Virus record (IMG/VR): IMGVR_UViG_3300002026_000030
Source of the DNA: a virus
Strand: one strand, 5' to 3'
DNA: 60,505 bases
Positions 16,701 through 60,505 of this stretch are shown piece after piece. The position numbers and the translations under genes are program-made. Position 1 is the stretch's first letter. Every line of letters begins with the position of its first letter. The notes beneath the pieces are model-generated. The model saw only the letters and a list, made by a program, of their open reading frames with translations, did not search any database and was not told the DNA's origin.

Positions 16701-18237
16701 CATGCGCGGTAACAAGGGCGTGGGGTATGGCCTCTGGGCGACGACTCGCAACGGTGGACGCGACTTCGTGCAGCACCTGCGGTCGTTCGCCGGCAAAGAG
16801 ACCAAGGGCGTCGTGACGCCTGAGCAGATGTTCGAGCAGATCCTTACGACGTACGCGCGGGGGCCGCAGGAAGAAGCGCTGCTGAAAACGCTGCGTGATC
16901 AGGGCGACCTCGACTTCGGGCATCTCGCCGCGCTGCAGGACACGCTCGCGTCAAGCAAGGTGGAGCGCAAGTGGAACGACGCACTCCGCATGGGTATGGC
17001 GTTCGCGCAACACGTGGAGACGATGAACCGCACGGTCACTGCGCTGGCGGCGTACCGTGCTGCGACTGAGCGACTGGGTTATGACAAGGTCATCAACCTC
17101 AACGGTGCGGCCGCGTCGCTAGATCCGCCGAACAAAACGCTCCGGTTCGTCACCGACTTCGTCAACGAGTCGATGATCAACTACTCGATGGTCAACCGAC
17201 CCAACGTGTTCAAGTACCAGTTCATGGGTCCGATCCTGCAGTTCAAGATGTACGTGCAGGGTATCTACGCCATGTTCATCCGCCACGGCGCGCTCGCACT
17301 TTCGGGCGACGCTGAGCAGCGCGCGAAAGGCTGGGCCGCGATGCGTAACCTGCTGGCCACGCACGCCGTGATGGCTGGCGCTATCGGTCTAGGCCCTCTC
17401 GCTGCGGTCGCGAAGATGACGCTGTGGGCTGGCGCCATGGCGTTCGGCGACGACGAGGACAAGTGGAAGGACGACGAGACGCTTCTCCACGAGTTCGTCA
17501 AGGATCACTTCGGTGACGGGGTGCTTGGCACTGCCGTCGAGCGTGGCGTTCCCGCTGCGCTGCTGAACATGGATCTGTCGAGCCGTGCTGGCCTGCCGAA
17601 CTTGCTCGACACGCGGTTCCTTAACCTGCGCGAAGACGACACCCCCAAGGGCACGGTGGACAAGGTCGCGCTCTACGCGCTCGGTCCGGTCTACGGCTCG
17701 ATCTCGCGTCTGCTGGGGCACGGCACCGCCACGCTCGGCGAGTCGATCGACTTCTTGCAGGGGGAAAGCGACAGCGATGATGTGCTGCGCGAGTTCGCTA
17801 AGGCATCGCCGACTGGGCTACGCAGCCTGATCGACGCGGTCCAGTACACGCGCAACGGCGTGATGGAGACGGACGGTGATCGCTTCATCCAGCCCGACGA
17901 CCTGTCGAGCTACGACGTGTTCGTCCGTGCGTTGGGCCTGACCCCGACGGAAGTCGGCAAGTCCTACGAGCGCCGCTCGCGGGAGTTCTCGACCATGGGC
18001 AACATCACCAAGGAGCGCGAGGACGTCATGAGCCAGTACAACATGGCGAAGAACCGTGGCACGCCGGACGACATGATCCGCGCACGCCAGCGCATCCGCG
18101 ACTTCAACCGTGTCGCCCCGGACGAGTTCAAGATCCGTCCAGACCAAGCGTCGCAGTCGGCGGCTAGCCAGCGCGAGCGCGAGTCGGGTGTTGTGGACAA
18201 GCGCCGACAGGCGGTTCGCGACGACGTGCTCGAATAA
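13762..18237 (+). CDS. large (1491 aa) virion-module protein with HExxH zinc-metallopeptidase motif; polyvalent / ejected-effector candidate
   Basis: AAGGAG 5 nt upstream; HELGH at aa 215-219 (nt 14404-14418); WFPLRRRGDF (PLxRxG-type) at aa 656-665; hydrophobic segment MAGAIGLGPLAAVAKMTLWAGAMAF around aa 1200-1225; last gene of the rightward block. Confidence 0.7.
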   Translation: MGSLTSCLTKAAKTVSRDDADAMQATAENFRREGVAPDAAGVQAIEAQLQTAVDEANEFAGKVNEQFGTKVSFELNRPAPETRADSNERLATTAERAGKTMRVGRVVIVGSVPTDFANLINGWLDKLGADTTKAAEAGIPSEVMLVDLPEFRARTGSTIGVNAQGVASHYYTKADGVRVAFIGIDMDGVRARAAEAFLIDGEQQGETALIETVAHELGHVIERSMFSKLPEADQQQVIDAYMRWLARVEGMPNSKAALERLTKVRGAMLANAKRQGDMNPGWDQLTYSKGWREWSADNIARWLLSDAEPQGVVDRFFSRVAAEIRKVFARLTGAPMPNPDIADVMRRMVARATAWREGADLGGVGTMNAKAYQARMARVLGGNDTEVDASLDPKTVEELDLNAEPARRAIEEMDAAIKRADNSTFSLTRGLANLLRGKSDNRLKQAGEVARDSLVGTKWDELKFALMSRLQIATLFDDRKDVAFATAARLLNDADRRAEQLSAEQRAPFDEIFRRIDALAPRARAILNLLMHDSTMVKIRPDVPFDHPANKHLGKSEAKRKQHAALAMKFRLATDPKYGGEPEIAKLYRELLAKSTRLNRRIARKQIKLAENEIKQIERDAGPEGLSKAKQAEINALRGQIKQLATQRLESSRGPWFPLRRRGDFIVKVPLPEDIIKDKGDVDFVTEEAAERAAKRARTANPNDSVRVNKRVGDNGELLGYDVRVSRNGVFFFESLAAARASKDDMIATVKSLWEELGTAAGSFDEWYEKNGDTAFNAKKVSDTYFSDKEVPGSVLEKMRKLKGEGLPPSVVEAFQTMALEADAQYTLNASALPRRNVIGASHDMTTAMAEWVYGASYNYGNITEAKGRRDAWKTLNKLANDISDDRRSALRRSAYNALAANDKLTAERRALTGYNTAANFVSRLSSLMSLAFSPAYVAINATQPHVVGTPLLAAQTIKNADGTYSTLGIAEAGRFMLDAMRGNKGVGYGLWATTRNGGRDFVQHLRSFAGKETKGVVTPEQMFEQILTTYARGPQEEALLKTLRDQGDLDFGHLAALQDTLASSKVERKWNDALRMGMAFAQHVETMNRTVTALAAYRAATERLGYDKVINLNGAAASLDPPNKTLRFVTDFVNESMINYSMVNRPNVFKYQFMGPILQFKMYVQGIYAMFIRHGALALSGDAEQRAKGWAAMRNLLATHAVMAGAIGLGPLAAVAKMTLWAGAMAFGDDEDKWKDDETLLHEFVKDHFGDGVLGTAVERGVPAALLNMDLSSRAGLPNLLDTRFLNLREDDTPKGTVDKVALYALGPVYGSISRLLGHGTATLGESIDFLQGESDSDDVLREFAKASPTGLRSLIDAVQYTRNGVMETDGDRFIQPDDLSSYDVFVRALGLTPTEVGKSYERRSREFSTMGNITKEREDVMSQYNMAKNRGTPDDMIRARQRIRDFNRVAPDEFKIRPDQASQSAASQRERESGVVDKRRQAVRDDVLE

Positions 18238-18334: not shown

Positions 18335-21298
18335 CTAACCAATCGCTGTCTTTGCGTCAACGATTGTCTCTGCACTCACTGACTGGATCTGCCCGAGCAA
18401 ACCTGCGCGGAACGTTACGAGCGGTGCGCGCATCGCTTGCACTTGGCCTGCCATGAACGTCCTGCGACCAACAAACTGGACGATACCTCCAGCCTGCATG
18501 TCGGCCTTCATCCACTCTTGAATCGCCTTGAAGTTGCCGTTCTGTTTGGTGACGAACTCACGCAGCGGGTCGAGGGGGATGTTCACCGTGCTCCGTACGA
18601 ACTTCCCGTTGACGGTTTGTCCGCGGATCTCGCCGAGGTACCTGCGCGTGCCGGTGGTCAGTAGGTCGTTACCCGACATACCGCCGATAACCGCGAAGTC
18701 ACCAAGGTTCTCGGTGATGTACGAGACGATGAAGTCTTCCGGCGAGCGGCGGACTTCCTCGAACTCTTGCGCCTGCCGCTTCCACTGCTCCATGACGGCG
18801 TGCTTGATCGCTTCGATGTCGAACGGCAGGCCCATGGCCTTACCGATGACGGCACCGAGTTCGATCAGCGCGGCACACGCAGAGCGGAAACGGTCACCCG
18901 TGCCCGTGGCGGCGTGCTGGTCCCACCATGCGATGCGCGTGTTGACCGCTTTGGTCCAGTACGCCACATCGCGCGATAGGTACATCTGCACCAGCTTGCC
19001 GCCCATGTGACCGAAGTGGTCACGGAGTTCCATCAGCTTGAGCTTCGCTTCCGACATCGCCGCCGGGGACATCGACAGGGGAGACAGGCGAAGCTCGAAC
19101 ACGCGGGCCGCTTCGGCCGTCGCATCGGAGCGGTAATTCAACAGCTTCTCGTGGATCGAGTTGTTCGCCGTCGTGATCATCGCCAGTCGCCACCGGTTCG
19201 ACCCCGCGTTCAACTGAGCGCTGGAGTTGAGACGGTGCTTCTCGCGGCCCTGAGTGACGGTGTACACGTAGTCGGAGAGCGACTTGCCGTCGATGTTCGT
19301 GAACTCATCGACCACCATGGGGAGATTGCCGATGGTGCTGGCCAGCTTCCACGTGGCGTTGGCGGTGTCGCGGTAGTCCTTTCGCAGCTTGTCGGGGTTG
19401 CCCCACACGGCGAGCGCCGCGTTGCACAGGGTGGACTTGCCGACGCCGGACTCTGGCGACCACGCGTTGAGGATGACGCCGTCGACGCCGGTGAACTCCA
19501 TCAGCGGGGTGGCGATCGACAGGGCGACAACCGCCTGCCGCTCTGCTGATCCCGCCATGGCCAGTGCGATGGCCGCCATACTGATCGACTCGTCGCCCTG
19601 CTCGTGGTACCCCTGCATTTCCGCAGCGGCAGCGCTGTCGTGCATCGCGTGGATGTGCTCGACGCCCTTGGCGGTGTACAGCCGAGTGCCGAGCACGAAC
19701 CCACTGTGGTCGTCGGTCCAGCCGCACTTCGCGGCGATGGTGTTGGCGGCACGGAGCCGCTGTAACTGTGTAAGGAACTCCGGCATAAATTTGTCCTGCA
19801 GCTGCTTGGCTTGCACCGAATTGAGTGACAGGCCAGACCCCGCCATGGTCTGGGCAAACGCCTTGCCGTCGTGCAGCGTGGCGTTGGTGAGCGCTACCCG
19901 CCGCAACGCGTCGGTGAACGCGTCGAACGTGAGGTTCACGATCATCTGCCGACCGTTGGCCTCCAGTAGCCGCTCAACCTCGACGATCTTGTAGGGGATG
20001 ATCGGCACCCAGAGGTCTTGCTTCTTGACGTTGCCCTCGGCGTCGGTCACATCGGTCAGGACCAACTGGTGGGGGATACCGCCCCGGATCGACAGGCGGG
20101 CCGTGAGCAGCCCGTCGATGACCCGGATACCCGACGTCGGGCCTAGCATGAAGACGCCGTGCTGTTGGTAGACTGGCTGCGCCGGTGCCGCCCCTGCGGG
20201 GACTGGTTGGGGGACTAGGGTCGGGGGCGGCGCCGGTGTTGGTTGGACCGCTAGATTGGCCGCCGACACCCGCGTCAGGCTCACCGGTGACTTGATGGCC
20301 GCCCGCATCGGGCAAGTCGCACACGCCGTCATCCCCAGCCCCGCCATCTTCGCGCACGTCGGGGGGTGGTAATCCTGCGACTCGACCTGCGCCCACTTCT
20401 GCTCCAGCACGCCGGGGCTATAGGACGGATGCCCTGCCGAGATGGCGTGCGCCACCCGCATTTTAACTTCGCGGGAATCGTCAGCCTTGTTGACGAGGTC
20501 CAGTGCCGCTTTCCACAGGGGCTCGCTAGTACCCGCGCCACCGGTCTGGAGCATCGCCTTCATGCCGGGGCAACCGATCAGGACGTCGCGCAGCACGTAC
20601 TGGGGATACCGCCCCGCGGAAAGCTCGTCGTTCACTCCCACGCGCGCCGGACCACCGGCACCGAACACTGGTCCGGCGTAAGGTAGGCGGGGGGACAGCG
20701 TGGCGACGTCGTACGCCGGTCCGATGTGCAGGATCTGCACGGGACGGGGCGTGCCGGTCTTGAGGTTCGGCGTGCCCGGAAGCCGGAGGATACGCGCCGC
20801 GTCCATGGTGACGACGGGGTCGGCAGCGAAGTGGAGCCGCTCGCACGCTTGCTTGAGGCCCCCCGCGAGAGGCAGCCACCGATCCTGCGGGAGGTCTTCG
20901 GTGAACGGCCAGTACACGTGGAGGCCACCGCCCGAGTCAACGATCGTGGGCTCGGGTAACCCCGCGGCCTGCATGAACGCGACGAGCGCCTGCCAGCCGT
21001 CCCGCTTGGTCGGGTAGGGCTTGCCGGGGCCACAGTCAACGTCGAGGCGGAGGCAGCGGTGGAACAGGGCGCAGGCGGCAGTGCGGCGGGGTTCGCCGTC
21101 CGCCCCCGGCACGTAGCCGGCGACGCCGAAATAGGCGTTGGCGCCTTTCTGGACACCCCACTGGGAAAAGCCCAGAAGGTTGTGGGTATCGCCTGCGTTG
21201 AAGAACTTATGAACTGGCTTCCCATCGGGCATGAACAGGGCAGCGGCCCAGTAGCCAACGGAGGGGAGCACCAACGAGAGGAACTGCGGTGTATTCAT
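18335..21298 (-). CDS. bifunctional DNA primase-polymerase (AEP) / SF3 (D5-like) replicative helicase
   Basis: AEP motifs LRLDVD, SGGGLHVYW, ILRLPGTPN in N-terminal third; Walker A SPESGVGKST and Walker B MVVDEF in C-terminal half; ATG 21298 preferred over track start 21337. Confidence 0.85.
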   Translation of the reverse strand: MNTPQFLSLVLPSVGYWAAALFMPDGKPVHKFFNAGDTHNLLGFSQWGVQKGANAYFGVAGYVPGADGEPRRTAACALFHRCLRLDVDCGPGKPYPTKRDGWQALVAFMQAAGLPEPTIVDSGGGLHVYWPFTEDLPQDRWLPLAGGLKQACERLHFAADPVVTMDAARILRLPGTPNLKTGTPRPVQILHIGPAYDVATLSPRLPYAGPVFGAGGPARVGVNDELSAGRYPQYVLRDVLIGCPGMKAMLQTGGAGTSEPLWKAALDLVNKADDSREVKMRVAHAISAGHPSYSPGVLEQKWAQVESQDYHPPTCAKMAGLGMTACATCPMRAAIKSPVSLTRVSAANLAVQPTPAPPPTLVPQPVPAGAAPAQPVYQQHGVFMLGPTSGIRVIDGLLTARLSIRGGIPHQLVLTDVTDAEGNVKKQDLWVPIIPYKIVEVERLLEANGRQMIVNLTFDAFTDALRRVALTNATLHDGKAFAQTMAGSGLSLNSVQAKQLQDKFMPEFLTQLQRLRAANTIAAKCGWTDDHSGFVLGTRLYTAKGVEHIHAMHDSAAAAEMQGYHEQGDESISMAAIALAMAGSAERQAVVALSIATPLMEFTGVDGVILNAWSPESGVGKSTLCNAALAVWGNPDKLRKDYRDTANATWKLASTIGNLPMVVDEFTNIDGKSLSDYVYTVTQGREKHRLNSSAQLNAGSNRWRLAMITTANNSIHEKLLNYRSDATAEAARVFELRLSPLSMSPAAMSEAKLKLMELRDHFGHMGGKLVQMYLSRDVAYWTKAVNTRIAWWDQHAATGTGDRFRSACAALIELGAVIGKAMGLPFDIEAIKHAVMEQWKRQAQEFEEVRRSPEDFIVSYITENLGDFAVIGGMSGNDLLTTGTRRYLGEIRGQTVNGKFVRSTVNIPLDPLREFVTKQNGNFKAIQEWMKADMQAGGIVQFVGRRTFMAGQVQAMRAPLVTFRAGLLGQIQSVSAETIVDAKTAIG

Positions 21299-21364
21299 GG
21301 AGACCCCTGCTGAGACGCTTAGGGGGTGCGGTTGCACCCCCGCCCGTGTTGCCCTCTACGGGGC

Positions 21365-32377: not shown

Positions 32378-33256
32378 TTACTCCCCAAGCAGACCGAGCA
32401 TGTCGTTGACCAGCGTCTGTGCCTTGTCGGCCACTTCGCTGCGGGCGGTGTCCATGGTGCGCAACGTCGTCGGGCTGTAGAGGCAGCACTCGGCCAGCAC
32501 GCGCTGACGGATCGCTTCCAACTCAGCGTGGCCGAACACGTTGAGCGGACCCAACGCCTCGGCCGTAGCCCGTACGTTGTCCACGGTGGTGTCGCGGAAG
32601 ATCGGGAACTTGCCGTCATCGCCGCGGCGCAACTTCTCGGCCAGATGCTTGACGTCCGTCAGCAAGCGCTCGATGGCCGTACGCAATGCGTTCTCCACCA
32701 GTTCACGTGCGCGGCTCTCGCCCGCTGCTTCAAGTGCAGCCACCTGCTCATCGGTGAGACCGTAGCGCACGTCGTCGGTGAAGCCCGCCGGCAGGGGCGA
32801 GAACGTCACGCGGAAGCTGAACCGCGGACGCACCTGATCGGTCGGGGGGTAGTCGGACGTATCGGCCAGATCACCGAGCGAGGCGAGCGCCTGCTGGCGC
32901 AGGATCGGATACTCCTCGACGAACGCATCGACCGCCGTGTTGAACTCGGCGCGGAACTCCGCGATCTTCGCCATGACAGCGAACGCCTTGGTGTTAGGGA
33001 GCAGGCGGTTACCCGCGTCGTCCCACGGCAGGGTCTCGGCGTCGAGGTAACGGCGAACGTTGGTGTCAATGCGGCGGATAGCCGTCAGCAACGTGTCGGC
33101 ACCGGCGAGCAGGCGCTTGTTGACGCGAGCGCTGTCGGCGATGGCACCGGCGTCGCCAGTGACCTTGGTGCTCGCCTTGCGGTCGAGCTTCATACCCGAC
33201 CACGACGAGATGGAGACGTACGCCAGCATGGCGCGTTGTGCGATGTTAGTGCTCAT
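32378..33256 (-). CDS. DUF3150-like protein
   Basis: 292 aa; N-terminus LAYVSISSWSGMKLDRKAST..ARVNKRLL...TLPWDDAGNRLLP recalls DUF3150 proteins, which co-occur with MoxR/VWA pairs; from memory, needs HMM confirmation. Confidence 0.5.
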   Translation of the reverse strand: MSTNIAQRAMLAYVSISSWSGMKLDRKASTKVTGDAGAIADSARVNKRLLAGADTLLTAIRRIDTNVRRYLDAETLPWDDAGNRLLPNTKAFAVMAKIAEFRAEFNTAVDAFVEEYPILRQQALASLGDLADTSDYPPTDQVRPRFSFRVTFSPLPAGFTDDVRYGLTDEQVAALEAAGESRARELVENALRTAIERLLTDVKHLAEKLRRGDDGKFPIFRDTTVDNVRATAEALGPLNVFGHAELEAIRQRVLAECCLYSPTTLRTMDTARSEVADKAQTLVNDMLGLLGE

Positions 33257-33259
33257 GAA

Positions 33260-33274
33260 TTAACCCCTGATTAA
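33260..33274. promoter_or_regulatory. TTAA-N7-TTAA box enclosing the Shine-Dalgarno of 32378..33256
   Basis: minus-sense TTAATCAGGGGTTAA then TTC-ATG; first TTAA contains the VWA gene stop. Confidence 0.5.
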
Positions 33275-34482
33275 ATGTGGCCCTTGAGGGCGATGGTGGA
33301 ACCGTAGGGAGCAACTTGCGAGGTGGTCATGGCCCAGATGACCGGGAACTTCGGGCGCTTGTTGTACGGGGTGTAGCCGTCGGTGAACACGACCACGAGG
33401 TCGCAGCGGCCGAGGTCGTCGTACGCCACTTCGAGATCCGTGCCACCACCGGCGCGCACACCCTTGCCGAACGCTTGCTTGAGTTGCGACATGTCCTTGA
33501 TCGAATCGAGGCGATGCACATGCGTGTCGGTCCATGCGATGCGCACCTCGCGCGGCTTGTACTCCTGCAGGATCAGCGCCAAGTGCCCGCCGAACACATC
33601 AAGCTCGCGCTGCCCGATGGAGCCGGACAAGTCCACGACCACGCCCACGGTGCCAAGACGGTAGCCGTCACGCCCGGGAGCACCGATGCCCCGGACGATG
33701 AGCTTGCGGTTGAGCTTGCGGCAGGACGTCGCGTCCTTGCCGTTAGCCACCTGCGACACGCGCTTGCGCAAGACCTTCCATGGATCATGCGGAGGCTTAG
33801 TCAACTCTTTGATCATGCGCTCGACCGACGGGGGTACCGCACCGCCGAGTGCCTTGGCCACGCGCGCCGCGTTGATCACGGCACCGGGGGTGATCGCAGG
33901 CTCGACGTCGTCATCGAGCATGTCGAAGTCTTCTTCGAGGCCATGCTCATCGAGCGCCTGCTGTTGCGCCTTGCCGCTGGTCGGCGACTGTTGCTGCTGG
34001 TTCTCCAGCTTGATGTAGATTTCCTGCGGCGTCATCGACGTCGGGAACTTGACGGTGTCGCAGAACCAAGTCGGCTGTACCACGCCCACGCCAGCTTCCT
34101 TGATCTGGCCGTTGACGCAGTAGTCGATCGCTTCCATCCAGCGGTTACGGTCGAACGCCTTGCCGTCTGGGCCGACGTTGGTGCGGTAATACTCGGCCTG
34201 CATCGGCACGTGTTGGAACACGCCGTGCATGACCTCGTGGGCGAACGCAGCGAGACGGCCCTCGGGCGGCAGACTCTTGAGGAACGCGGGGTTGTACATG
34301 AAGGTGCGGACACCGACGGCCAGCGTCGGGATGCTGTCGGTGGCCACGTGCTTGTAACGCATGAACAAGCTGGCGAAGAACGGAGCGTTCATCATCAGGA
34401 CGGCGGCGGTGTCCTTGTACTCGGTCGAGTGCAAGAGCTTGCCGTTGGGGTGCGGGGTCTTGGCAAACATGGCGGTGCTCAC
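33271..34482 (-). CDS. VWA-domain protein with N-terminal HExxH metallopeptidase-like domain (DUF2201 type)
   Basis: FAHEVMHGVFQH (HExxH); VWA/MIDAS-like VVVDLSGSI ... GGGTD ... VVVFTDGYT. Confidence 0.75.
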   Translation of the reverse strand: MSTAMFAKTPHPNGKLLHSTEYKDTAAVLMMNAPFFASLFMRYKHVATDSIPTLAVGVRTFMYNPAFLKSLPPEGRLAAFAHEVMHGVFQHVPMQAEYYRTNVGPDGKAFDRNRWMEAIDYCVNGQIKEAGVGVVQPTWFCDTVKFPTSMTPQEIYIKLENQQQQSPTSGKAQQQALDEHGLEEDFDMLDDDVEPAITPGAVINAARVAKALGGAVPPSVERMIKELTKPPHDPWKVLRKRVSQVANGKDATSCRKLNRKLIVRGIGAPGRDGYRLGTVGVVVDLSGSIGQRELDVFGGHLALILQEYKPREVRIAWTDTHVHRLDSIKDMSQLKQAFGKGVRAGGGTDLEVAYDDLGRCDLVVVFTDGYTPYNKRPKFPVIWAMTTSQVAPYGSTIALKGHI

Positions 34483-35540
34483 TTGTTCGCGAACTTGGCG
34501 AGACGGGCGATGACGTCGCTGTTAGCGGCGCCCCATGTGGCGAACTCGGTCGTGTTGCCGAACTTCGTGTCACGACGCAGCAAGCCAGCGACGCCGACCA
34601 TGGCGTAGTTGGCGTCGTAACGGCTCAGGTACTTGATGACGGGGCCAGCGTCTTTGAGCGCGGCGCGGGTCACGCAGAGCATGATCGCGGCGTACTGCTG
34701 GTCCAACTCGGACGGTACCTTCGCGCGCTCCGGGTCGGTCACAATTTCCGCATAGGACGGCAGCTTGCCGAACATCTCGACGGCCGCACGGAACTCCACC
34801 GCTGCACCGGTGCCGATCAGACCGCACGCCAGCGCAAACGCAGCGCCATCCGTAGCGAAGTCCGAGCGACCTCCGGGCCACGACTCGATCAGCTTGGCCA
34901 GTGCCTCGGCCGATCGGTGCGTGAAGTACGGGGTGTTGTCCTGCTCAGGGATCTTGCCCAGTAGCTCGCCGCCGCGCAGCTTGAGGAACGTCGGCACTTC
35001 GGGGCCGTACTCCTTGCCGATGAGGTAAGCGACAAGCTCGTCAACGGTCGGGGGTTCCACCTCGACGATGCACAGGCGGTTGACCACGTGCGAGAGGAAC
35101 GAGTTAGCGCCAGCGTTGTCATCGACGCGGTTACCTGCCACGACGACCTGCCAGCCGGGGGGTAGCACGTTGTCACCGATGCGGCGCTCCAGAAGCAGCG
35201 AGGCGATAGCCTTCTGTACTTCCGGTGCAGCCTGCGGCAGTTCGTCGAGGAACAGGATGCCGTGCGTCTGCTCAGGGGTGGGCCAGAACGGCGGCAGGGT
35301 GAAGATGGCCTTGTTGCCATCCGGCACCACGTAGCCGCGCACATCGACCTCAGAGATCGAGGCGAGTTCAACGACCTTGACGAAGTGCTCGATGCCCGTC
35401 TGTGCATACAGGCGGCGGGCTGCCTCATGTACACCAGCGGTCTTGCCGATGCCCGGAGCACCGAGCATGGTGAGCGTGATGTTGGCATTGCGGCAGGCGT
35501 TGATGCAGGCAGCAATGGCGGAGAATTTGATGCTGTTCAT
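34479..35540 (-). CDS. MoxR/CobS-like AAA+ ATPase
   Basis: Walker A GAPGIGKT, Walker B ILFLDELP, sensor-1 VVVAGN; ATG 35540 (AGGAAA upstream) preferred over GTG 35612, which lies at the predicted transcription start. Confidence 0.8.
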   Translation of the reverse strand: MNSIKFSAIAACINACRNANITLTMLGAPGIGKTAGVHEAARRLYAQTGIEHFVKVVELASISEVDVRGYVVPDGNKAIFTLPPFWPTPEQTHGILFLDELPQAAPEVQKAIASLLLERRIGDNVLPPGWQVVVAGNRVDDNAGANSFLSHVVNRLCIVEVEPPTVDELVAYLIGKEYGPEVPTFLKLRGGELLGKIPEQDNTPYFTHRSAEALAKLIESWPGGRSDFATDGAAFALACGLIGTGAAVEFRAAVEMFGKLPSYAEIVTDPERAKVPSELDQQYAAIMLCVTRAALKDAGPVIKYLSRYDANYAMVGVAGLLRRDTKFGNTTEFATWGAANSDVIARLAKFANK

Positions 35541-35560
35541 GAGTAATTTCCTGAGAGTAA

Positions 35561-35575
35561 TTAAACAGTGATTAA
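35561..35575. promoter_or_regulatory. TTAA-N7-TTAA box in the leader of the MoxR operon
   Basis: TTAAACAGTGATTAA, 20 nt upstream of ATG 35540, about 40 nt downstream of the promoter at 35621-35649. Confidence 0.5.
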
Positions 35576-35620
35576 GTCGGTGATCAGTGGGAGGCGATGG
35601 CCGCACTCCCACTGTATAAC

Positions 35621-35649
35621 ATTGTACTACATTTGACGGGGTTTGTCAA
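35621..35649 (-). promoter_or_regulatory. sigma70-type promoter (TTGACA-17-TACAAT)
   Basis: minus strand: TTGACA (35649-35644), 17-nt spacer, TACAAT (35626-35621); in the gap between 35653..35877 and the MoxR gene. Confidence 0.75.
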
Positions 35650-35652
35650 GTG

Positions 35653-35877
35653 TTACGTGCGGGGAAGCGCCGCCGTTGGTACGGGCTGTGTCAAGCGCTC
35701 CAGCCAGTACGACGCTGCCCCATAGCCCGGGGCGATGATGATGGCGAAGTCGTTGCCGTGCATCTCGCAACGCACACTCAAGCTCGTCGTACGGCAGGTG
35801 TCGAGCACCTGCAGCACGCGGTCTTGTAGTTCCTTCGGCTGGCGACGGAAGTCGAACGCGGTGGCTGCGGGGTTCAT
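35653..35877 (-). CDS. hypothetical protein
   Basis: 74-aa ORF, start overlaps upstream stop. Confidence 0.5.
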   Translation of the reverse strand: MNPAATAFDFRRQPKELQDRVLQVLDTCRTTSLSVRCEMHGNDFAIIIAPGYGAASYWLERLTQPVPTAALPRT

Positions 35878-38174: not shown

Positions 38175-38189
38175 TTAACTCCTGATTAA
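38175..38189. promoter_or_regulatory. TTAA-N7-TTAA box enclosing the Shine-Dalgarno of 36935..38170
   Basis: minus-sense TTAATCAGGAGTTAA then ATTC-ATG. Confidence 0.5.
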
Positions 38190-39299: not shown

Positions 39300-39314
39300 T
39301 TAATCCTCGATTAA
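39300..39314. promoter_or_regulatory. TTAA-N7-TTAA box enclosing the Shine-Dalgarno of 38691..39296
   Basis: minus-sense TTAATCGAGGATTAA then TTC-ATG; overlaps last codons and stop of 39300..39716. Confidence 0.5.
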
Positions 39315-41647: not shown

Positions 41648-41662
41648 GACGGTGATCCTTTA

Positions 41663-41677
41663 TTAATTGGTGATTAA
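41663..41677. promoter_or_regulatory. TTAA-N7-TTAA box in the leader of the main leftward operon
   Basis: TTAATTGGTGATTAA, 15 nt upstream of ATG 41647, about 90 nt downstream of promoter 41775-41803. Confidence 0.5.
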
Positions 41678-41774
41678 ATGGCGGTATCGCGACAATTCAA
41701 CCGATGAGGGGTGCAGCGCGTCGCTAGGTGCAGCACCCGTGAGCAGCGGACGCATTTGTCCCTGTCACAAGAGC

Positions 41775-41803
41775 AGTATACCAGAAATAGATCGAGTTGT
41801 CAA
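41775..41803 (-). promoter_or_regulatory. sigma70-type promoter (TTGACA-17-TATACT), main leftward early promoter
   Basis: minus strand: TTGACA (41803-41798), 17-nt spacer, TATACT (41780-41775). Confidence 0.75.
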
Positions 41804-42060
41804 GGCGTAGTCGAACGTCATTTTATTAAACAAAACATAACACTTGTCCGATTCAAAATACAACGTTAGAAAGTGACATCTCAGTTGTTACGTGCCAACG
41901 GCGCGGGTTGTAGCGGGTCTAAGTGCGGCACGGTCACGGCATGGGTCGAATATGTCACATTTCACATTAGGCGGATGTTATGCGCTGACAGGGCCGCAGG
42001 CAAGGCGTTTTAGCGATCTAGGGCAAGTTATTAAATGGAGAGAGGGTTCGGGGGTTCGGT

Positions 42061-42075
42061 TTAATCGCTGATTAA
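42061..42075. promoter_or_regulatory. TTAA-N7-TTAA box, near-perfect 7-1-7 palindrome
   Basis: TTAATCGCTGATTAA inside the non-coding region. Confidence 0.5.
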
Positions 42076-42270
42076 GTCGTGTGGGATTTTTGTGTAGACG
42101 GTTTCATGCCGATGTTATGCGCTGCCCGCTGCCCGAGGTAAAAAACGAGAGCCCCCCATGGGGTGAGGGGGTTTCATCTCAAAACATATCTGCTAGCTTG
42201 TTCCGCCCCTCGCGTGAGGCTCTTGTTTGGCGTAGTCATGGATGTTACATCGGGCACTGCCCAATATGGG

Positions 42271-42310
42271 GTTATTATTAATTACTAGATAAGAATAAGT
42301 AATAATAATA
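42271..42310. other. extreme AT-rich tract (possible DNA-unwinding element)
   Basis: gttattattaattactagataagaataagtaataataata: 5 G/C in 40 nt within a GC-rich genome; internal AATAAG and AATAATAATA repeats. Confidence 0.5.
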
Positions 42311-42545
42311 CCCCCAATTCGGGCTTTCCCTGCATACGCTGCCGCTATTAGCGGCACCCCCAAACGCTAAAACCGTCAAACCTCTGCCCGATTGAACGGG
42401 CAGCGTATACCAAGTTACTACGATTGCCACACCCCAAAACCCCCTATTTATTGGGCGTGCCGTGGCCTCACCCCACTTAGCTCCCCGCAAACCGGCCTTG
42501 CCTGCATGGGGTGAGTTACCATACCGCAGTACCATGATCCATAAA

Positions 42546-42560
42546 TTAATTGGCGTTTAA
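42546..42560. promoter_or_regulatory. TTAA-N7-TTAA box
   Basis: TTAATTGGCGTTTAA inside the non-coding region. Confidence 0.45.
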
Positions 42561-42707
42561 ATCGTATACGGCGACGCCATCCAGTAGCCATTAGCCGATC
42601 CTATGAGGAAAAACCCCTCAACCGTGTGAAGGGTTTTCACATCAGGATGTTTCCCCCCAGCTTGTTACGTGGCGGGAAGTCCGCCGGATGTCACGAGCCC
42701 TAGACGC

Positions 42708-42737
42708 AAAAAACCCCGCCACCTTTCGGCAGCGGGG
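42708..42737 (-). terminator. rho-independent terminator of the Ala/Lys-rich gene
   Basis: minus strand CCCCGCUGCC-GAAA-GGUGGCGGGG (10-bp stem incl. two G.U pairs, GNRA loop) followed by U6; 22 nt after the stop. Confidence 0.85.
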
Positions 42738-42759
42738 TCGCGGGGTCTCGCCTTGCGAC

Positions 42760-43617
42760 TTATTCGCCCTTGCCAACGCTGGCTGCGCTGGTGGCCTCGT
42801 CAATCGCGCCGACCATGTTGCGCGTCATGGTCTCAACGTTAGCCAGCGCTCCGGCAATCGCGCCCCGGAGGATGGGGTCCGCGGCGCAACGCGTGGCCAG
42901 AGCCGCCAGCTGGTGGGCGACATCCTGCGCAATCTTGCGCGCATTGGTGCGCTCCGCTTGGGTCGCGGCCTTGGGCGCGGTGCTGGTGGGGCCTGCCTTT
43001 TCGGCCTTCGCTTTCATCGCGTCCGCCTTTGCAGTGTCCGCCGCGGCCTTCGCGACCTTGGCAGCCTCCGCCTTGGCCAGCGCCGCGGCAATAGCAGCAT
43101 CAGCCTCCGCCGTGGCCTTCGCGGCCTTCGCCTTATCCGCGGCCTTCGCGCCTTGCACGGCCGCGACGAACTGGGCGCTTTCGGCCTTCGCTGCCGCGGC
43201 CTTCGCCGTGAGCATGGCGGCCTTGGAAGCCTCCGCCGCGGCCTTCGCCGCCTCACGTGCTGCAGCATCCGCGCCAACGGGGGCACCCTTCGCAGACTTA
43301 AGTCCGGCGGCCTTGTACGCGCTATCAACCGCGTCCTGCACCTGCCGCGCCGACGTAAGGCCGGTCAAGTCGGGGAGCGGCTTCTTTGCTTTCGCCAGCT
43401 TGAAGGCTTGCGCCAGCTTCGAGGAATAAACCCCCCACGCGCTTTCCTTCAATTCGGCGCCGCCTTCCTTCCATACGGCGCCCACGTCTGCAGGGGTGGG
43501 CTCCCAACCTGCGAAAGCGGCCTTGAACAAGGCAACCCACGCGATGGCCGTGGCCGTGGAAAGGGTGCGCACTGCTTCAACGGCCAGAACGCGGGGGGCT
43601 TTTTTGGTGGTGGTCAT
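42760..43617 (-). CDS. Ala/Lys-rich low-complexity protein (histone H1/AlgP-like composition), stand-alone early gene
   Basis: ATG 43617 (GAAGGA 9-10 nt upstream) preferred over ATG 43626; about 120 aa of AKAAA-type repeats between globular ends. Confidence 0.65.
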   Translation of the reverse strand: MTTTKKAPRVLAVEAVRTLSTATAIAWVALFKAAFAGWEPTPADVGAVWKEGGAELKESAWGVYSSKLAQAFKLAKAKKPLPDLTGLTSARQVQDAVDSAYKAAGLKSAKGAPVGADAAAREAAKAAAEASKAAMLTAKAAAAKAESAQFVAAVQGAKAADKAKAAKATAEADAAIAAALAKAEAAKVAKAAADTAKADAMKAKAEKAGPTSTAPKAATQAERTNARKIAQDVAHQLAALATRCAADPILRGAIAGALANVETMTRNMVGAIDEATSAASVGKGE

Positions 43618-43638
43618 GGCATTCATCCTTCTAAGGAA

Positions 43639-43653
43639 TTAATCACTGACTAA
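43639..43653. promoter_or_regulatory. TTAA-N7-CTAA box in the leader of the Ala/Lys-rich gene
   Basis: TTAATCACTGACTAA; 21 nt upstream of ATG 43617; near-identical to the box at 43744. Confidence 0.45.
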
Positions 43654-43689
43654 GTCAGAGGCGGCAGGCAAGACGCCCGACGCAGTGCA

Positions 43690-43718
43690 AGTATCGCACA
43701 AGCTGGTGGAAATGTCAA
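43690..43718 (-). promoter_or_regulatory. sigma70-type promoter (TTGACA-17-GATACT)
   Basis: minus strand: TTGACA (43718-43713), 17-nt spacer, GATACT (43695-43690). Confidence 0.65.
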
Positions 43719-43743
43719 GGTTTAACCCCACAACGTGGTGGAT

Positions 43744-43758
43744 TTAATCACCGACTAA
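43744..43758. promoter_or_regulatory. TTAA-N7-CTAA box upstream of promoter 43690-43718
   Basis: TTAATCACCGACTAA, 25 nt upstream of the -35 hexamer. Confidence 0.45.
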
Positions 43759-43952
43759 TTACGGTCACGGGGTGGGGGGGTACTGGACCACGACCCGACC
43801 CCCCGGTGGCCCCCCCTTTACCTCAACCAGAAATATTTTTCCCCGAAAATACTTAATACGATAAAACCCCCGTACCCCATTAAATGCTAGGCCCTCGCAC
43901 CCCATAAAGTTCTGCGCTACCCTCCCCCCGCACCCCACCGCGGAGTTACCCC

Positions 43953-44948
43953 ATGTTCACTCGCATACGCGCGTTCGTACGCCAGAACGTTGAAGTCACC
44001 GTGTGGCTTCCCGTCATCGCGGCGCTGCTGTCCGCCGGCTGGTTCTTTACATGGTGGAGCGGGCTCGCCGTTGTCGAGCTTGGCCCCATCTTGATGGACT
44101 TCGCGATCCGCGCGCTTGGTGTGATTGGCGTGCTGTGGATCACGTGGTTTGCGAAGAAAGCCTACTGGAGCGATCTCTCGGAAAACGAGGAGAAAGCCCA
44201 CTCTGCGATCATCGACAACGAACCCTTTGGTGTCGACGCAGAGAACAGCTGGCGCAAACTGATCTTCGATCGCGCGCAGTTCGTCGTGATGTTCTTACTC
44301 GTACTGCTCGCTGCGAACTACGCGCAGGCCGCACCCCATGAAGCGCAGTGCATCCGCGATCTGATCGTGCGATGGGAGGTCGGCTCGAAGGCGCAGTACG
44401 ACCGCAAGTATCAAAGCCCGATCTGGCCCGGGGGCGCGTCAGGCGTCACGTGGGGTCTGGGCTACGACGGTGGTCACCAGCCGGTCCATGTCATCCGGGA
44501 AGACTGGGCGCAGCACCCCGACAACGTACGGCTTTCCGCCAGTTCGGGGGTGACGGGGCAAGCCGCGCGTGGGCTGGTGCCGTACTACCGCGGAGTGGTC
44601 GTGCACTGGGCCTTGGCCACCGAGGTCTTCGACGCAAGCTCCGCGCCGCGCTACATGCGGCTGGCCCGACAAGCGTACGGGCGGGGGTTTGACCGAGCGC
44701 CCATTGGGGTGCGGTGTGCCCTGACGGTGGAGACTTACAACCGCGGGCCCGCGATGACCGGGGATCGGAGGCTGGAGCGACGTGCGATCCGCGATGTATG
44801 CTTGACCTCAGAGCCGGTCGATGCGGCCTGCGTCGCGCGACAACTTGAAGCCAGCTGCCGAGTCTGGGCCAACGACAAACAAAACGGGACGGGACTATGC
44901 AACAGGCGGCGGGACGAGGCGCGAGTCGCGCGGGAGATAACGACATGA
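43953..44948 (+). CDS. membrane-anchored endolysin: holin-like two-TM N-terminus plus signal/SAR-like segment fused to a lysozyme-type (T4L/pesticin-like) muramidase
   Basis: GGAG 7 nt upstream; TM1 VTVWLPVIAALLSAGWFFTWW, TM2 ILMDFAIRALGVIGVLWITWFA, then FVVMFLLVLLAANYAQA|AP; catalytic-type pattern RWEVG..YD..SGVTWGLGYDGG. Confidence 0.6.
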   Translation: MFTRIRAFVRQNVEVTVWLPVIAALLSAGWFFTWWSGLAVVELGPILMDFAIRALGVIGVLWITWFAKKAYWSDLSENEEKAHSAIIDNEPFGVDAENSWRKLIFDRAQFVVMFLLVLLAANYAQAAPHEAQCIRDLIVRWEVGSKAQYDRKYQSPIWPGGASGVTWGLGYDGGHQPVHVIREDWAQHPDNVRLSASSGVTGQAARGLVPYYRGVVVHWALATEVFDASSAPRYMRLARQAYGRGFDRAPIGVRCALTVETYNRGPAMTGDRRLERRAIRDVCLTSEPVDAACVARQLEASCRVWANDKQNGTGLCNRRRDEARVAREITT

Positions 44949-59978: not shown

Positions 59979-60505
59979 ATGGCTCGCACCGTTGGTTCAG
60001 ACCTCGACCTCAACAGCACCAGCCGAATCCTCAACCTGCCAAACCCCACGCTGGCGCAACACGCCGCCACGAAGGCGTACGTGGACAGCGCCGTTGAGGG
60101 CTTGGCATGGAAAGATTCTTGCCGTGTCGCCACGCAGAGCAACACCAGCATTGCATCTCCCGGCGCGTCACTTGACGCCATCACGATGTCGGCAAACGAC
60201 CGCGTGCTGGTGCGGGCGCAGTCCACCCAGACGGAAAATGGCATTTACATCTGGAATGGCGCAGCCACCCCGATGACGCGCGCCGCTGACGCCGACACGT
60301 TCGCAGAGCTTGAGCAAGCGGTCGTCACCATCGAGGAAGGCACCAGCGCGGGCGCGTCGTTCCGTCAGACTGCGATCAACGGCGTAATCGGGACGAACAA
60401 CGTCCTGTGGTCGGCGTTCGGTACCGCGACCCCCGCAGCGACTGAGACCACAGCGGGTATCGCGGAAATCGCCACGCAGGCGGAGACCGACACGGGCACT
60501 GACGA
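59979..60505 (+). CDS. tail fibre protein, 5' part (continues at nt 92 through the circular junction, ends 356)
   Basis: AAGGA upstream of ATG 59979; my translation MARTVGSDLDLNSTSRILNLPNPTLAQHAATKAYVDS... and ...TETTAGIAEIATQAETDTGTDD(LRFVTP) are classic fibre N-terminal motifs; open to window end. Confidence 0.8.
   Translation, partial: MARTVGSDLDLNSTSRILNLPNPTLAQHAATKAYVDSAVEGLAWKDSCRVATQSNTSIASPGASLDAITMSANDRVLVRAQSTQTENGIYIWNGAATPMTRAADADTFAELEQAVVTIEEGTSAGASFRQTAINGVIGTNNVLWSAFGTATPAATETTAGIAEIATQAETDTGTD
60415..60505. repeat. terminal direct repeat, copy 2 (identical to 1..91)
   Basis: verbatim copy of nt 1-91. Confidence 0.95.

Follow-up and report, generated by a model that had tools for sequence, protein, structure and literature searches.

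The 1.1-kb gene-free hub at positions 41648-42759 of the window (the whole 60,505-nucleotide stretch analyzed here, IMG/VR virus record IMGVR_UViG_3300002026_000030) is probably, though by no means certainly, the meeting point of the two ends of a linear virion chromosome, as displayed in a circular assembly, together with a leader of ~950 nt; this reading follows from a DNA end that appears to lie inside the hub. The phage is new and belongs to an uncultured, poorly annotated group. As a locus, the hub is overall of an ordinary kind, and its conserved core is unexplained.

Results

A preliminary description of the hub had proposed that it was non-coding and might serve as a replication origin and/or encode a structured RNA. 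All the features it had listed, including every GC-rich hairpin, were found where it had placed them. The hub also proved to be non-coding: codon-position GC periodicity was absent across 41650-42700, no gene was called in the hub of any relative, and, since the spacing of conserved blocks varied by only ±1 nt, we judged coding to be incompatible with the pattern. A gap of ~1.0 to 1.3 kb with unchanged gene order was present in the metagenome relatives L002/L003, L004, L008, L067, and L069, and more distant IMG/VR relatives of the lysozyme-like neighbor (identity ≤51%) were mostly without a comparable non-coding hub. Searching 50,697 phage records with the hub DNA gave no match, neither flanking protein retrieved a relative when scanned against IMG/VR, and an invariant 18-mer gave nothing there. 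A 19-base pattern used in metagenome and genome scans was discarded, as all of its 57 loci were chance matches of 21 to 38 nt. Rhizobium phage RHph_TM3_14A has an analogous AT-rich gap, without boxes and without similarity to the hub. The elements discussed below are, from high to low coordinates:

42712-42739, minus strand: intrinsic terminator T1 of the 288-aa gene (42760-43626, minus strand), with a 12-bp stem, GAAA loop, and T-run
42610-42637, minus strand: GC hairpin and T-run just ahead of the putative genome end (inverted repeat I17)
42602-42603, no strand: putative physical DNA terminus, minus strand ...GGGGTTTTTCCTCAT / AGGATCGGCTAATGGCTAC, placed by contig ends and an adapter
42584-42602, minus strand: first bases of the early-gene end, AGGATCGGCTAATGGCTAC, with a doubled GGCTA(A/C) motif, from comparison of relatives
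42546-42560, no strand: TTAA-N7-TTAA box 3, ~45 nt from the putative genome end
42484-42503, minus strand: near-invariant block AGGCAAGGCCGGTTTGCGGG, a small hairpin needing two G.U pairs on the minus strand
42384-42406, minus strand: hairpin H1, CTGCCCG-TTCAAT-CGGGCAG, invariant in five lineages
42340-42360, minus strand: hairpin H2, GGGGTGCCGC-TAATA-GCGGCA, with its stem in relatives
42271-42310, no strand: AT-rich center, 5 G/C in 40 nt, unique in the window and conserved in six lineages
42244-42256, minus strand: block TGCCCGATGTAAC, conserved in relatives, previously described as a third, degenerate repeat copy
42141-42229, minus strand: terminator-like T2 from terminator scans, an A-run (AACAAGAG), two hairpins, and a T-run (GGGGGCTCTCGTTTTT)
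42111-42137, minus strand: tandem CGGGCAGCG (two copies), then repeat copy CAGCGCATAACATC, from repeat and conservation scans
42061-42075, no strand: box 2, the perfect dyad TTAATC-AGC-GATTAA, from a motif scan
41974-42017, minus strand: conserved block CGCTAAAACGCCTTGCCTGCGG and repeat copy TGTCAGCGCATAACATC, 72-87% identical to relatives
41775-41803, minus strand: major early promoter, TTGACA-17-TATACT with a TG, from a promoter scan
41648-41771, minus strand: conserved 5'-UTR of the early operon, with a stem-loop (41736-41771) at its start and box 1 plus the Shine-Dalgarno sequence at its end
41663-41677: box 1, at the end of the 5'-UTR with the Shine-Dalgarno sequence

What the preliminary description had missed was the physical genome end inside the hub. 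The contig of relative L007 reads ...TCTCAT and passes directly into the Illumina TruSeq adapter AGATCGGAAGAGCGTCGTGTAGGGAAAGAGTG, the L009 contig stops at ...TCTCAT, and the L005 and L006 contigs stop at ...TTTTTCGTGATA (homologous ...GTGATA). The ends of L007, L009, and L005/L006 align in register with the window and with L002, L008, and L004; the three lineages they represent, whose samples and flanks differ, end no more than one base apart. One defined base pair, as expected of a fixed terminus, was thus reproduced across samples in three lineages, with all observed contig ends approaching the break from the side of the 288-aa gene. Where the hub is complete (L002, L008, L004, and the window), AGGAyCG follows the site, and the bases flanking the break are conserved on both sides. 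Directly ahead of the site, every relative has a GC hairpin with a T/A run; in L004, this hairpin is T1. On the other side, the doubled GGCTA(A/C) motif is kept in L002 and L008 (AGGATCGGCTACyrGCTAC) and partly in L004 and L067, making it a candidate terminase recognition sequence. The large terminase was set aside as a guide to the end type, having only a generic PHROG 2 match and no PDB sequence match, and the records of Pseudomonas phage Rollin and Rhizobium phage RHph_TM3_14A carry no end information. We also rejected a protelomerase-type hairpin telomere for the palindrome, as the larger ORFs scanned had no such domain and the adapter shows a free end, as well as an attP site, there being no integrase among the ORFs scanned; a Rhizobium phage "integrase" annotation sits on a homolog of the primase-helicase. 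The 288-aa neighbor was not recognizable as a DNA-binding or terminase protein (no Pfam or PHROG match), and its AlphaFold model (pLDDT 80, all-helical) gave no PDB fold match.

Within the leader, a core of ~520 nt (about 41974-42503) is 65-87% identical to relatives, which puts its conservation above that of synonymous sites in the flanking genes (38-68%). Distances from block to block are constant to ±1 nt over the ~520 nt, whereas adjoining stretches vary by 20 to 90 nt. These comparisons support the core as a selected non-coding element. This central element of the leader clearly appears functional from its conservation, with replication origin, packaging signal, and RNA as candidate roles. 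A G-rich arm, the AT center, and a C-rich arm follow one another in six lineages. The hub of distant L069 is homologous as well (local alignment score of 48 versus 27.8±2.8 for shuffles) and forms a degenerate palindrome of ~800 nt centered on its own AT tract; by eye, the block at 42244-42256 is recognizable there as CCGATGTCGTAAAC. In the window, the near-invariant block at 42484-42503 is complementary to 41996-42015 (inverted repeat I2), and the AT center is the apex of a 22-nt imperfect inverted repeat (42259-42280 / 42303-42324) and includes the conserved block TCTAGTAATwAATAATA. The tract has 5 G/C, as previously described, and is the sole 40-mer in the window with 5 or fewer.

The repeats differed in how far they could be trusted. 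The exact 14-mer GATGTTATGCGCTG at 41974 and 42111, with a related copy at 42241, is real and both copies are kept in relatives; by our own estimate ~0.002 such repeats are expected in 1.1 kb, so chance is not the explanation. The 9-mer TGTTACGTG is present at 41886, 42663, and 35651, and a fourth copy at 48445 had been overlooked, but a repeat of this length is expected by chance in 1.1 kb. Similarly, both copies of the 11-mer CATGGGGTGAG exist, but their number is close to chance (~0.1, own estimate) and the pairing partner is not kept in relatives.

Boxes of the form TTAA-N7-TTAA were confirmed at 41663, 42061, and 42546, and the window has 8 in total against 0.05 expected. All 8 lie between 27.7 and 42.6 kb, with three in the hub and three others enclosing the Shine-Dalgarno sequence of early genes, a significant and position-skewed enrichment of the kind that marks the CtrA-regulated phage regions of Mascolo et al. 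2022. The extended consensus is the dyad TTAATC-N3-GATTAA; we call the boxes CtrA-type by motif. Relatives L002, L004, L005, L008, L067, and L147 also have boxes. At or near the place of box 3, one is found in L067, L008, and L002 and a half-site in L004, and in L147 the variable stretch next to it contains three boxes in tandem; box 2 is present in L067 and L004 and absent in L002 and L008. The suggestion that a box-binding factor gates the element was not supported as an account of the core, since L069-type relatives keep a homologous hub without any TTAA-N7-TTAA. The core is therefore independent of such a factor, gating by it cannot be the core function, and the boxes, being confined to this clade, were added to an older, box-free element.

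The origin idea remains plausible in part: a selected non-coding element, a conserved and unique AT center, conserved 14-mers, and box enrichment were found, whereas an iteron array and DnaA boxes were not. In its classic form, with the core as replication origin, the GATGTTATGCGCTG-type repeats as iterons, the AT tract as unwinding element, and the boxes letting CtrA gate firing, we regard it as possible but on balance doubtful. The unique, conserved AT tract at 42271-42310 is what an iteron origin needs for unwinding, the repeats are conserved and restricted to the hub, and the fixed spacing is as expected of a nucleoprotein complex. Moreover, the genes diverge from a point ~1 kb away, so that most would be co-oriented with forks leaving the hub, which holds three boxes. 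Iteron origins, however, have at least three direct repeats set close together, at intervals of about two helical turns, beside the AT element; in the hub, two 14-mers are exact, the further copies (one or two) are degenerate, and the spacing is 130 to 137 bp, with no array adjoining the AT tract. No TTATCCACA-like DnaA box was found in the hub with up to 1 mismatch, the replication genes lie at 18-27 kb, 15 to 24 kb from the hub, with the initiator candidate, a DUF927 primase-helicase (18335-21337), 21 kb away, and the L069-type hubs have no box for CtrA to act on. Cumulative GC skew has a peak rather than a minimum at the hub, opposite to the bacterial origin rule, but since this peak coincides with the switch in gene orientation it is uninformative.

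That the core encodes a minus-strand non-coding RNA, a regulator or a replication pre-primer like the PE1 transcript of phage c2 or RNA II of ColE1, seems unlikely to us. Such an RNA could be a transcript of ~380 nt from a box-dependent promoter near 42520-42560 ending at T2 (42141-42174), or one of ~125 nt starting in the AT tract. For it speaks T2, a minus-strand hairpin with T-run that is conserved in six of six members and flagged by the scans in the window and L002. The minus strand also folds better relative to shuffles (z = -4.2 versus -2.0 for the plus strand), hairpin positions common to relatives number seven on the minus and five on the plus strand, and some G.U pairs would be A.C on the plus strand. 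R-loop-primed origins have G-clusters upstream of an AT tract, a layout that the hub resembles. On the other hand, Rfam 15, in which the large phage-associated RNAs should be represented, gave no match at gathering score anywhere in the window, and at E≤10 only chance-level matches to hairpin models. RNAalifold on four to six relatives gave weak consensus folds with positive, i.e., unfavorable, covariation terms on both strands; with so few sequences, this test is low in power. Pairing is kept with changed stems in H2, the hairpin ahead of the AT tract, and the 5'-UTR stem-loop. In L147, the H2 stem is retained with its innermost pair flipped and a larger loop, in L004 it is kept through a U.G pair, and in L067 it is weaker. 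H1, in contrast, is broken in L147, and where blocks change, as here, the changes are mostly uncompensated; otherwise, the sequence itself is conserved. The helix AACAAGAG / CTCTCGTT favors, by eye, the plus strand in some members and the minus strand in another, and the G.U versus A.C asymmetry was abandoned as a strand test because helices gave conflicting answers. Upstream of the AT tract (42700-42310), the scan detected no sigma-70-like promoter; this interval does contain a TTAA-N7-TTAA box and a conserved TATGGT-like element, and T2 lies downstream. A tRNA/tmRNA scan found none, and the conserved blocks, used as antisense seeds against the other phage genes, had no complementary site outside the hub. 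A large structured RNA thus drew no support from Rfam or, among these four to six sequences, from covariation. Still less probable, in our view, is the combined proposal that the core is a transcript-primed (R-loop type) origin or large non-coding RNA that fires, in this clade, under a host cell-cycle regulator acting through the CtrA-type boxes.

We consider it quite improbable, too, that the hub is purely a regulatory and insulating zone, in which T1, the end-proximal hairpin, and T2 shield the early operon against transcription coming from upstream in a circular or concatemeric genome and the conserved blocks are operators at which phage or host regulators act on the early promoter, origin, packaging, and RNA functions all being absent. 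The proposed leftward promoter (TTGACA-17-TATACT with an upstream TG) was confirmed; it has the same consensus and place in L002, L004, and L069 and aligns in L067 and L008. A series of three terminator-like elements does stand upstream of it, the palindromes TGCCCG-N6-CGGGCA and TGCCGC-N5-GCGGCA resemble dimer binding sites, and boxes occur both in the hub and adjoining the ribosome-binding sites of early genes. The 5'-UTR stem-loop is kept with differing stems (GGAC/GTCC, GGGC/GCCC, and CAAGC/GCTTG). However, the blocks reach up to 700 nt upstream of the promoter with ±1 nt spacing, far beyond operator needs, and the half-site spacing of the homologous GGGGTGC... hairpins differs between two clades, which fits hairpins over dimer sites. 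The two terminators also behave differently. T1 is found in all relatives with compensatory stem changes, and thus behaves as an ordinary terminator, whereas T2 is almost invariant in sequence. The first hairpin of T2 is terminator-like on the plus strand, and L069 has, by eye, an analogous AAAAACAGAAG ... CCTCTGTTTTT pair around two unrelated hairpins.

Least likely of all is that there is no terminus and that the coincident ends are assembly artefacts of the GC hairpin with T-run, or of the variable stretch that follows, with the L007 adapter a chance read-through at a low-coverage contig end: six assemblies (the window, L001, L002, L004, L008, and L067) do pass through the site and L007 is short and probably of low coverage, but two further ends within ±1 nt in ~1 kb have a chance of ~1e-5 by our own estimate, an adapter can be ligated only to a double-stranded end, and bases on both sides of the break are conserved. 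Contigs of the group also break elsewhere, at C/G-run palindromes, other hairpin or homopolymer sites, and the AT tract, so the support for the terminus lies in the coincidence of three lineages plus one adapter. Near the lysozyme-like gene, the contigs L070, L148, L149, L008, and L009 start at what look like C/G-run palindrome breaks, and we rejected these starts as ends. The window itself is a circular assembly whose 91-nt overlap lies elsewhere.

Discussion

On the reading we prefer, a chromosome-end junction followed by a leader, the right arm would stop just past the 288-aa gene, T1, and the second GC hairpin with T-run, at ...CCTCAT (window 42603). The other arm would begin with AGGATCGGCTAATGGCTAC (42602 downwards) and run through ~950 nt of non-coding leader to the first early gene. 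This leader would open with a TTAA-N7-TTAA box and the ~520-nt fixed-spacing core (G-rich arm, AT center, C-rich arm with the terminator-like hairpin, and direct CAGCGCATAAC repeats), and continue with the consensus sigma-70-type early promoter and a 5'-UTR having a 5' stem-loop and a box adjoining the ribosome-binding site. Late in infection, terminase would cut concatemers at 42602/42603. Host RNA polymerase would start the early operon at the consensus promoter, and a host CtrA-type factor on the boxes may tune early expression in this clade. The core would work mainly as DNA, most likely as the region where replication starts, with the AT center as unwinding point, possibly primed by a leftward transcript stopping at T2. 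Recognition for packaging, over an extended region, may be an additional or alternative role of the core.

Such an arrangement has counterparts in known systems. As at lambda cos or a T7-type left end, a double-stranded end at a fixed position, with conservation of the bases to either side, would lie in a non-coding stretch, with early promoter(s) within ~1 kb of one end; unlike in lambda, where they are adjacent, the terminase genes are 4.6 to 6.5 kb away. At the Caulobacter chromosomal origin (Cori), a single non-coding region combines TTAA-N7-TTAA boxes with an AT-rich tract. Compared by motifs, the hub has the same combination, but it is without DnaA boxes and box-free relatives keep the core. 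The hub also resembles the c2 origin, the ColE1 RNA II region, and the promoter-plus-AT-tract origins of T7 and T4 in its place directly ahead of the main early promoter, whose orientation it shares, and in its make-up: it is non-coding, with hairpins, an AT-rich tract, and a terminator-like end, and without an ORF or ribosome-binding site. In contrast to these origins, no promoter was detected here for the putative transcript. As recounted in PMC7150918 (citing Schiemann et al. 2004), the origin of lactococcal phage c2 is situated between early promoters one and two and depends on the non-coding PE1 transcript, a precedent that would favor an RNA at the hub. The c2 origin is placed mid-genome between divergent early and late blocks, whereas the core here is 90 to 600 nt from the putative genome end.

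CtrA sites have been reported to concentrate in or just after terminal repeats, or in gap regions of ~1 kb, in phages of Alphaproteobacteria (Mascolo et al. 2022, PMC9437464). The phages rich in CtrA sites described there (vB_BsubS-Delta, Sphingomonas MMDA13, Rhizobium Palo and Pasto, and phiCbK-like phages) resemble ours in that TTAA-N7-TTAA is strongly enriched with a skew in position, that the boxes occupy a large non-coding region beside a genome end and upstream of early genes, and that relatives gain and lose boxes. The present phage differs in its lineage (SU10-like portal, DUF927 primase-helicase), in having three of its eight boxes in the hub and another three around early-gene Shine-Dalgarno sequences, in its dyad consensus, and in a hub core older than the boxes. 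An unrelated lineage would thus be added to the phages with CtrA-type boxes beside their termini.

If the terminus is correct, the chromosome ends of an uncultured phage group have been placed using public assemblies alone, which fixes the orientation of the genome, with the early genes at one end and the 288-aa gene last at the other. The core, more conserved than the neighboring proteins and with nucleotide-fixed spacing over half a kilobase, offers a well-defined target for origin or transcript mapping. Should it prove to be an origin or RNA under a host cell-cycle regulator, phage replication and early expression would be licensed by the stage of the host cell cycle, and a cell-cycle-gated origin would make the idea of "lytic deferment" directly testable at the level of replication.

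A conserved non-coding hub

The hub features listed in the preliminary description were all recovered in place, and its reading of 41648-42759 as non-coding held: codon-position GC periodicity was absent, no gene was called there in any relative, and distances between conserved blocks shifted by single nucleotides. GC content was ~50% in the hub versus 63% in the genome. The TTAA-N7-TTAA box occurred at 8 sites in the window versus 0.05 expected, and the AT tract of the hub was the window's sole 40-mer with at most 5 G/C. By our own estimates, the exact 14-mer repeat was far above chance, the 11-mer repeat marginal, and the 9-mer repeat, which had a fourth copy at 48445, expected by chance. 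On the minus strand, CACGTAACA directly abutted the -35 TTGACA of the 35.6-kb promoter (35640-35665) and was also present at 41884-41894, where the main early promoter follows ~85 nt downstream; RTAACA-form motifs occurred five times on the hub minus strand.

DNA searches and pattern scans for hub relatives gave nothing useful, and relatives with matching gene order were reached via homologues of the 288-aa gene and of the 331-aa lysozyme-like gene. An alignable hub was carried by the metagenome contigs L002/L003, L004, L008 and L067, and in part by L147 (alignments A1 and A5). Between the window and its relatives, identity was 38-68% at synonymous sites of flanking genes and 50-67% for the 288-aa protein. 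For the first hub core, identity was 65-77% across the five lineages whose hubs are full-length, falling to 47% for L147, whose hub is partial and the most diverged of the set; the second core was 72-87% identical to relatives. Long near-invariant blocks were present, and from the AGGCAAGG block to the CATAACA repeat (~520 nt) no block spacing differed by more than ±1 nt among four to five lineages, with length changes of 20-90 nt in the flanking stretches.

The hub of L069 and L071 had the size and layout of the window's and aligned only locally, but significantly (score 48 vs 27.8±2.8 for shuffles); Rhizobium phages had an analogous AT-rich gap without sequence similarity. In 6/6 lineages including L069, the arm preceding the AT tract on the early-gene sense strand was G-rich, with three to six runs of G4+, and the arm following it was C-rich. 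Complementarity of the arms was still recognisable across ~800 nt in L069, and just nested fragments of this symmetry were left in the window, some of which, for instance the 10-mer pair TGGGGTGAGG/CCTCACCCCA, were not kept in relatives. The box-free hub at L069:3660-4882 (also in L071) formed a ~800-nt degenerate palindrome centred on the AT tract (self reverse-complement alignment E = 5e-34; fold z ~ -9 on both strands), with repeated GGGGTGC(G)TTTTTCGCA hairpins in one arm, matched by their complements in the opposite arm.

A DNA terminus within the hub

Several contigs stop soon after the 288-aa gene, and their end sequences were compared. L007 read ...GGGCAATAAATCTCAT and then AGATCGGAAGAGCGTCGTGTAGGGAAAGAGTG, the Illumina TruSeq read-through adapter; no other fetched locus matched an adapter. 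L009 ended in ...TTTTTTCTCAT, and L005 and L006 in ...GGGGGTTTTTCGTGATA. These ends were in register with full hubs (alignment A6), where the sequence across the site (marked by a slash) was ...GGGGTTTTTCCTCAT/AGGATCGG in the window, ...TCTCAT/AGGATCGG in L002 and L008, and ...TTTTTCATGAT/AGGACCG in L004. Since three lineages from separate samples end within one base of one another, one of them with a ligated adapter, we take 42602/42603 (the END site) to be a real double-stranded DNA end, as seen from the 288-aa-gene side. Other assemblies continued through the site, as is expected if the DNA is replicating, if cohesive ends are ligated or if the terminal repeat is short, and C/G-run palindromes and the AT tract were further places at which contigs of this phage group broke. 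Of the new findings, the best supported is that the hub is a junction of chromosome ends, followed by an early leader.

Features of the end junction and leader on the minus strand, in leftward order

1. 43718..43690, consensus promoter of the 288-aa gene, followed by that gene
2. T1, terminator of the 288-aa gene
3. Second hairpin and T-run
4. 42602/42603, END site
5. AGGATCGGCTAATGGCTAC, directly after the END site
6. 42546, box 3
7. G-rich arm: block Y, hairpins H1 (42384..42406) and H2 (42340..42360)
8. AT centre
9. TGCCCGATGTAAC
10. 42141..42229, T2, terminator-like: A-run, two hairpins, T-run
11. CGGGCAGCG in tandem and copy 2 of the 14-mer repeat (42111)
12. 42061, box 2
13. Block CGCTAAAACGCCTTGCC and repeat copy 1 (41974)
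14. Variable spacer
15. Early promoter TTGACA-17-TATACT
16. 5'-UTR: stem-loop of conserved position, box 1 (41663), Shine-Dalgarno
17. First early gene

T1 changed with compensation, like an ordinary terminator, in contrast to T2, whose sequence was almost invariant. In L067 (BBPE01001513.1, 4700-4835), three copies of the terminator unit that follows the 287-aa gene surrounded a stretch of N, suggestive of tandem repetition or of an assembly left unresolved at this place.

Flanking genes and genome layout

The 288-aa gene (42760-43626, minus strand) is the last before the terminus. Its product is all-helical and Ala/Lys-rich, matched no Pfam or PHROG family and no PDB fold, and had only six homologue clusters among 5.8 billion proteins. 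The intergenic stretch upstream (43627-43760) held two near-boxes, TTAATCACTGACTAA and TTAATCACCGACTAA, and the equivalent stretch in L004, L005 and L067 held perfect boxes. The 331-aa lysozyme-like protein (43953-44948, plus strand) has a hydrophobic N-terminal segment and homologues in hundreds, some from Xanthomonadaceae genomes; one homologue of its C-terminal domain was named GH24-family lysozyme by its source. This gene probably opens the lysis cassette.

Because nt 1-91 are identical to 60415-60505, both within a coding region, the contig is a circular assembly cut open at an arbitrary point, with a true length of ~60,414 bp. It encodes an SU10-type portal, large terminase, family-A DNA polymerase, SNF2 helicase, PD-(D/E)XK nuclease and DUF927 primase-helicase. 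The nearest cultured relatives are remote (portal 41% identical to Rhizobium phages RHph_TM3_14A and kin; primase-helicase 27% identical to that of Pseudomonas phage Rollin). Genes run leftward from ~43.6 kb to 18.3 kb, and mainly rightward from 43.95 kb across the window ends to 18.2 kb. The C-terminal third of a 1491-aa ORF (13762-18237, plus strand) matched PHROGs of giant proteins, including a DarB-like antirestriction family, and its product may be an injected anti-defence protein. Consecutive genes of the early region (32378-35612, minus strand) encode a MoxR-like AAA ATPase, a DUF2201 metallopeptidase/VWA protein and a weak DUF3150 match, a trio also called in L002.

The TTAA-N7-TTAA boxes

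All members of the window-type clade carried boxes, and none was found in the L069-type, L075, L148, L149, Rhizobium-phage and IMG/VR relatives examined; they are a clade-specific addition onto an older hub. The pattern agrees with that of phages carrying sites for the regulator CtrA, which are unrelated, have alphaproteobacterial hosts and often gained and lost these sites, the sites clustering within or immediately after terminal repeats, or within gaps of ~1 kb (Mascolo et al. 2022, PMC9437464).

Two observations call for caution on this parallel. The extended box consensus was a dyad, TTAATC-N3-GATTAA, perfect in several copies (e.g., window 42061-42075 and 39300-39314, and the three tandem boxes at L147:577-683). 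CtrA half-sites are direct repeats and do not require a dyad, so the box-binding factor could be a protein other than CtrA. Furthermore, three boxes outside the hub (33260-33274, 38175-38189 and 39300-39314) enclosed a Shine-Dalgarno in the 7-nt spacer and ended 3-4 nt ahead of the ATG of minus-strand genes (e.g., TTAATCAGGAGTTAAattcATG). Such a box with its internal Shine-Dalgarno is a stereotyped ribosome-binding cassette. Instead of working at a -35 position, the motif may serve to block or time transcription or translation where genes start.

Folded RNA, DNA element or origin

Several results speak against a large structured RNA. The hub had no Rfam match. RNAalifold gave weak consensus folds whose covariation terms were unfavourable on either strand (4-6 sequences, too few for strong structure tests); in a column-pair search, conserved complementary segments were invariant and few covaried, and H1 was disrupted in L147 without compensating change. 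In favour of some RNA or single-strand structure, the window core folded better than shuffles (z = -4.2 on the minus strand, -2.0 on the plus strand), more shared hairpin positions lay on the minus strand, some requiring G.U pairs, and a few hairpins retained pairing despite changed sequence. On balance, hub conservation looks like that of primary-sequence sites at fixed distances, so a nucleoprotein assembly on DNA, as in an origin or packaging complex, would be a somewhat better match to the core than a folded RNA.

The hub could include a replication origin: its AT centre, its repeats, which are conserved, the fixed layout of the core and the fact that gene orientation diverges close by are all consistent with one. 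A classic iteron type is at odds with how widely the repeats are spaced, with the lack of DnaA boxes in the hub and with the distance to the replication genes. The earlier interpretation holds in part: the hub is a non-coding element under selection that could include an origin, and neither an iteron origin nor a structured RNA was demonstrated. A reasonable analogue is the transcript-dependent origin of lactococcal c2-type phages, which is located between the first and second early promoters and depends on the non-coding PE1 transcript (PMC7150918). Three hub features carry the analogy: a putative leftward non-coding unit with T2 at its end, G-clusters on the upstream side of the AT tract, and the position of the main early promoter further downstream. 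The promoter scan detected no promoter for the T2-terminated unit; by analogy, we infer that the hub may hold a transcript-dependent origin. With a conserved core that is unusually rigid and unexplained, the hub represents a known kind of locus, a chromosome-end junction with an early leader.
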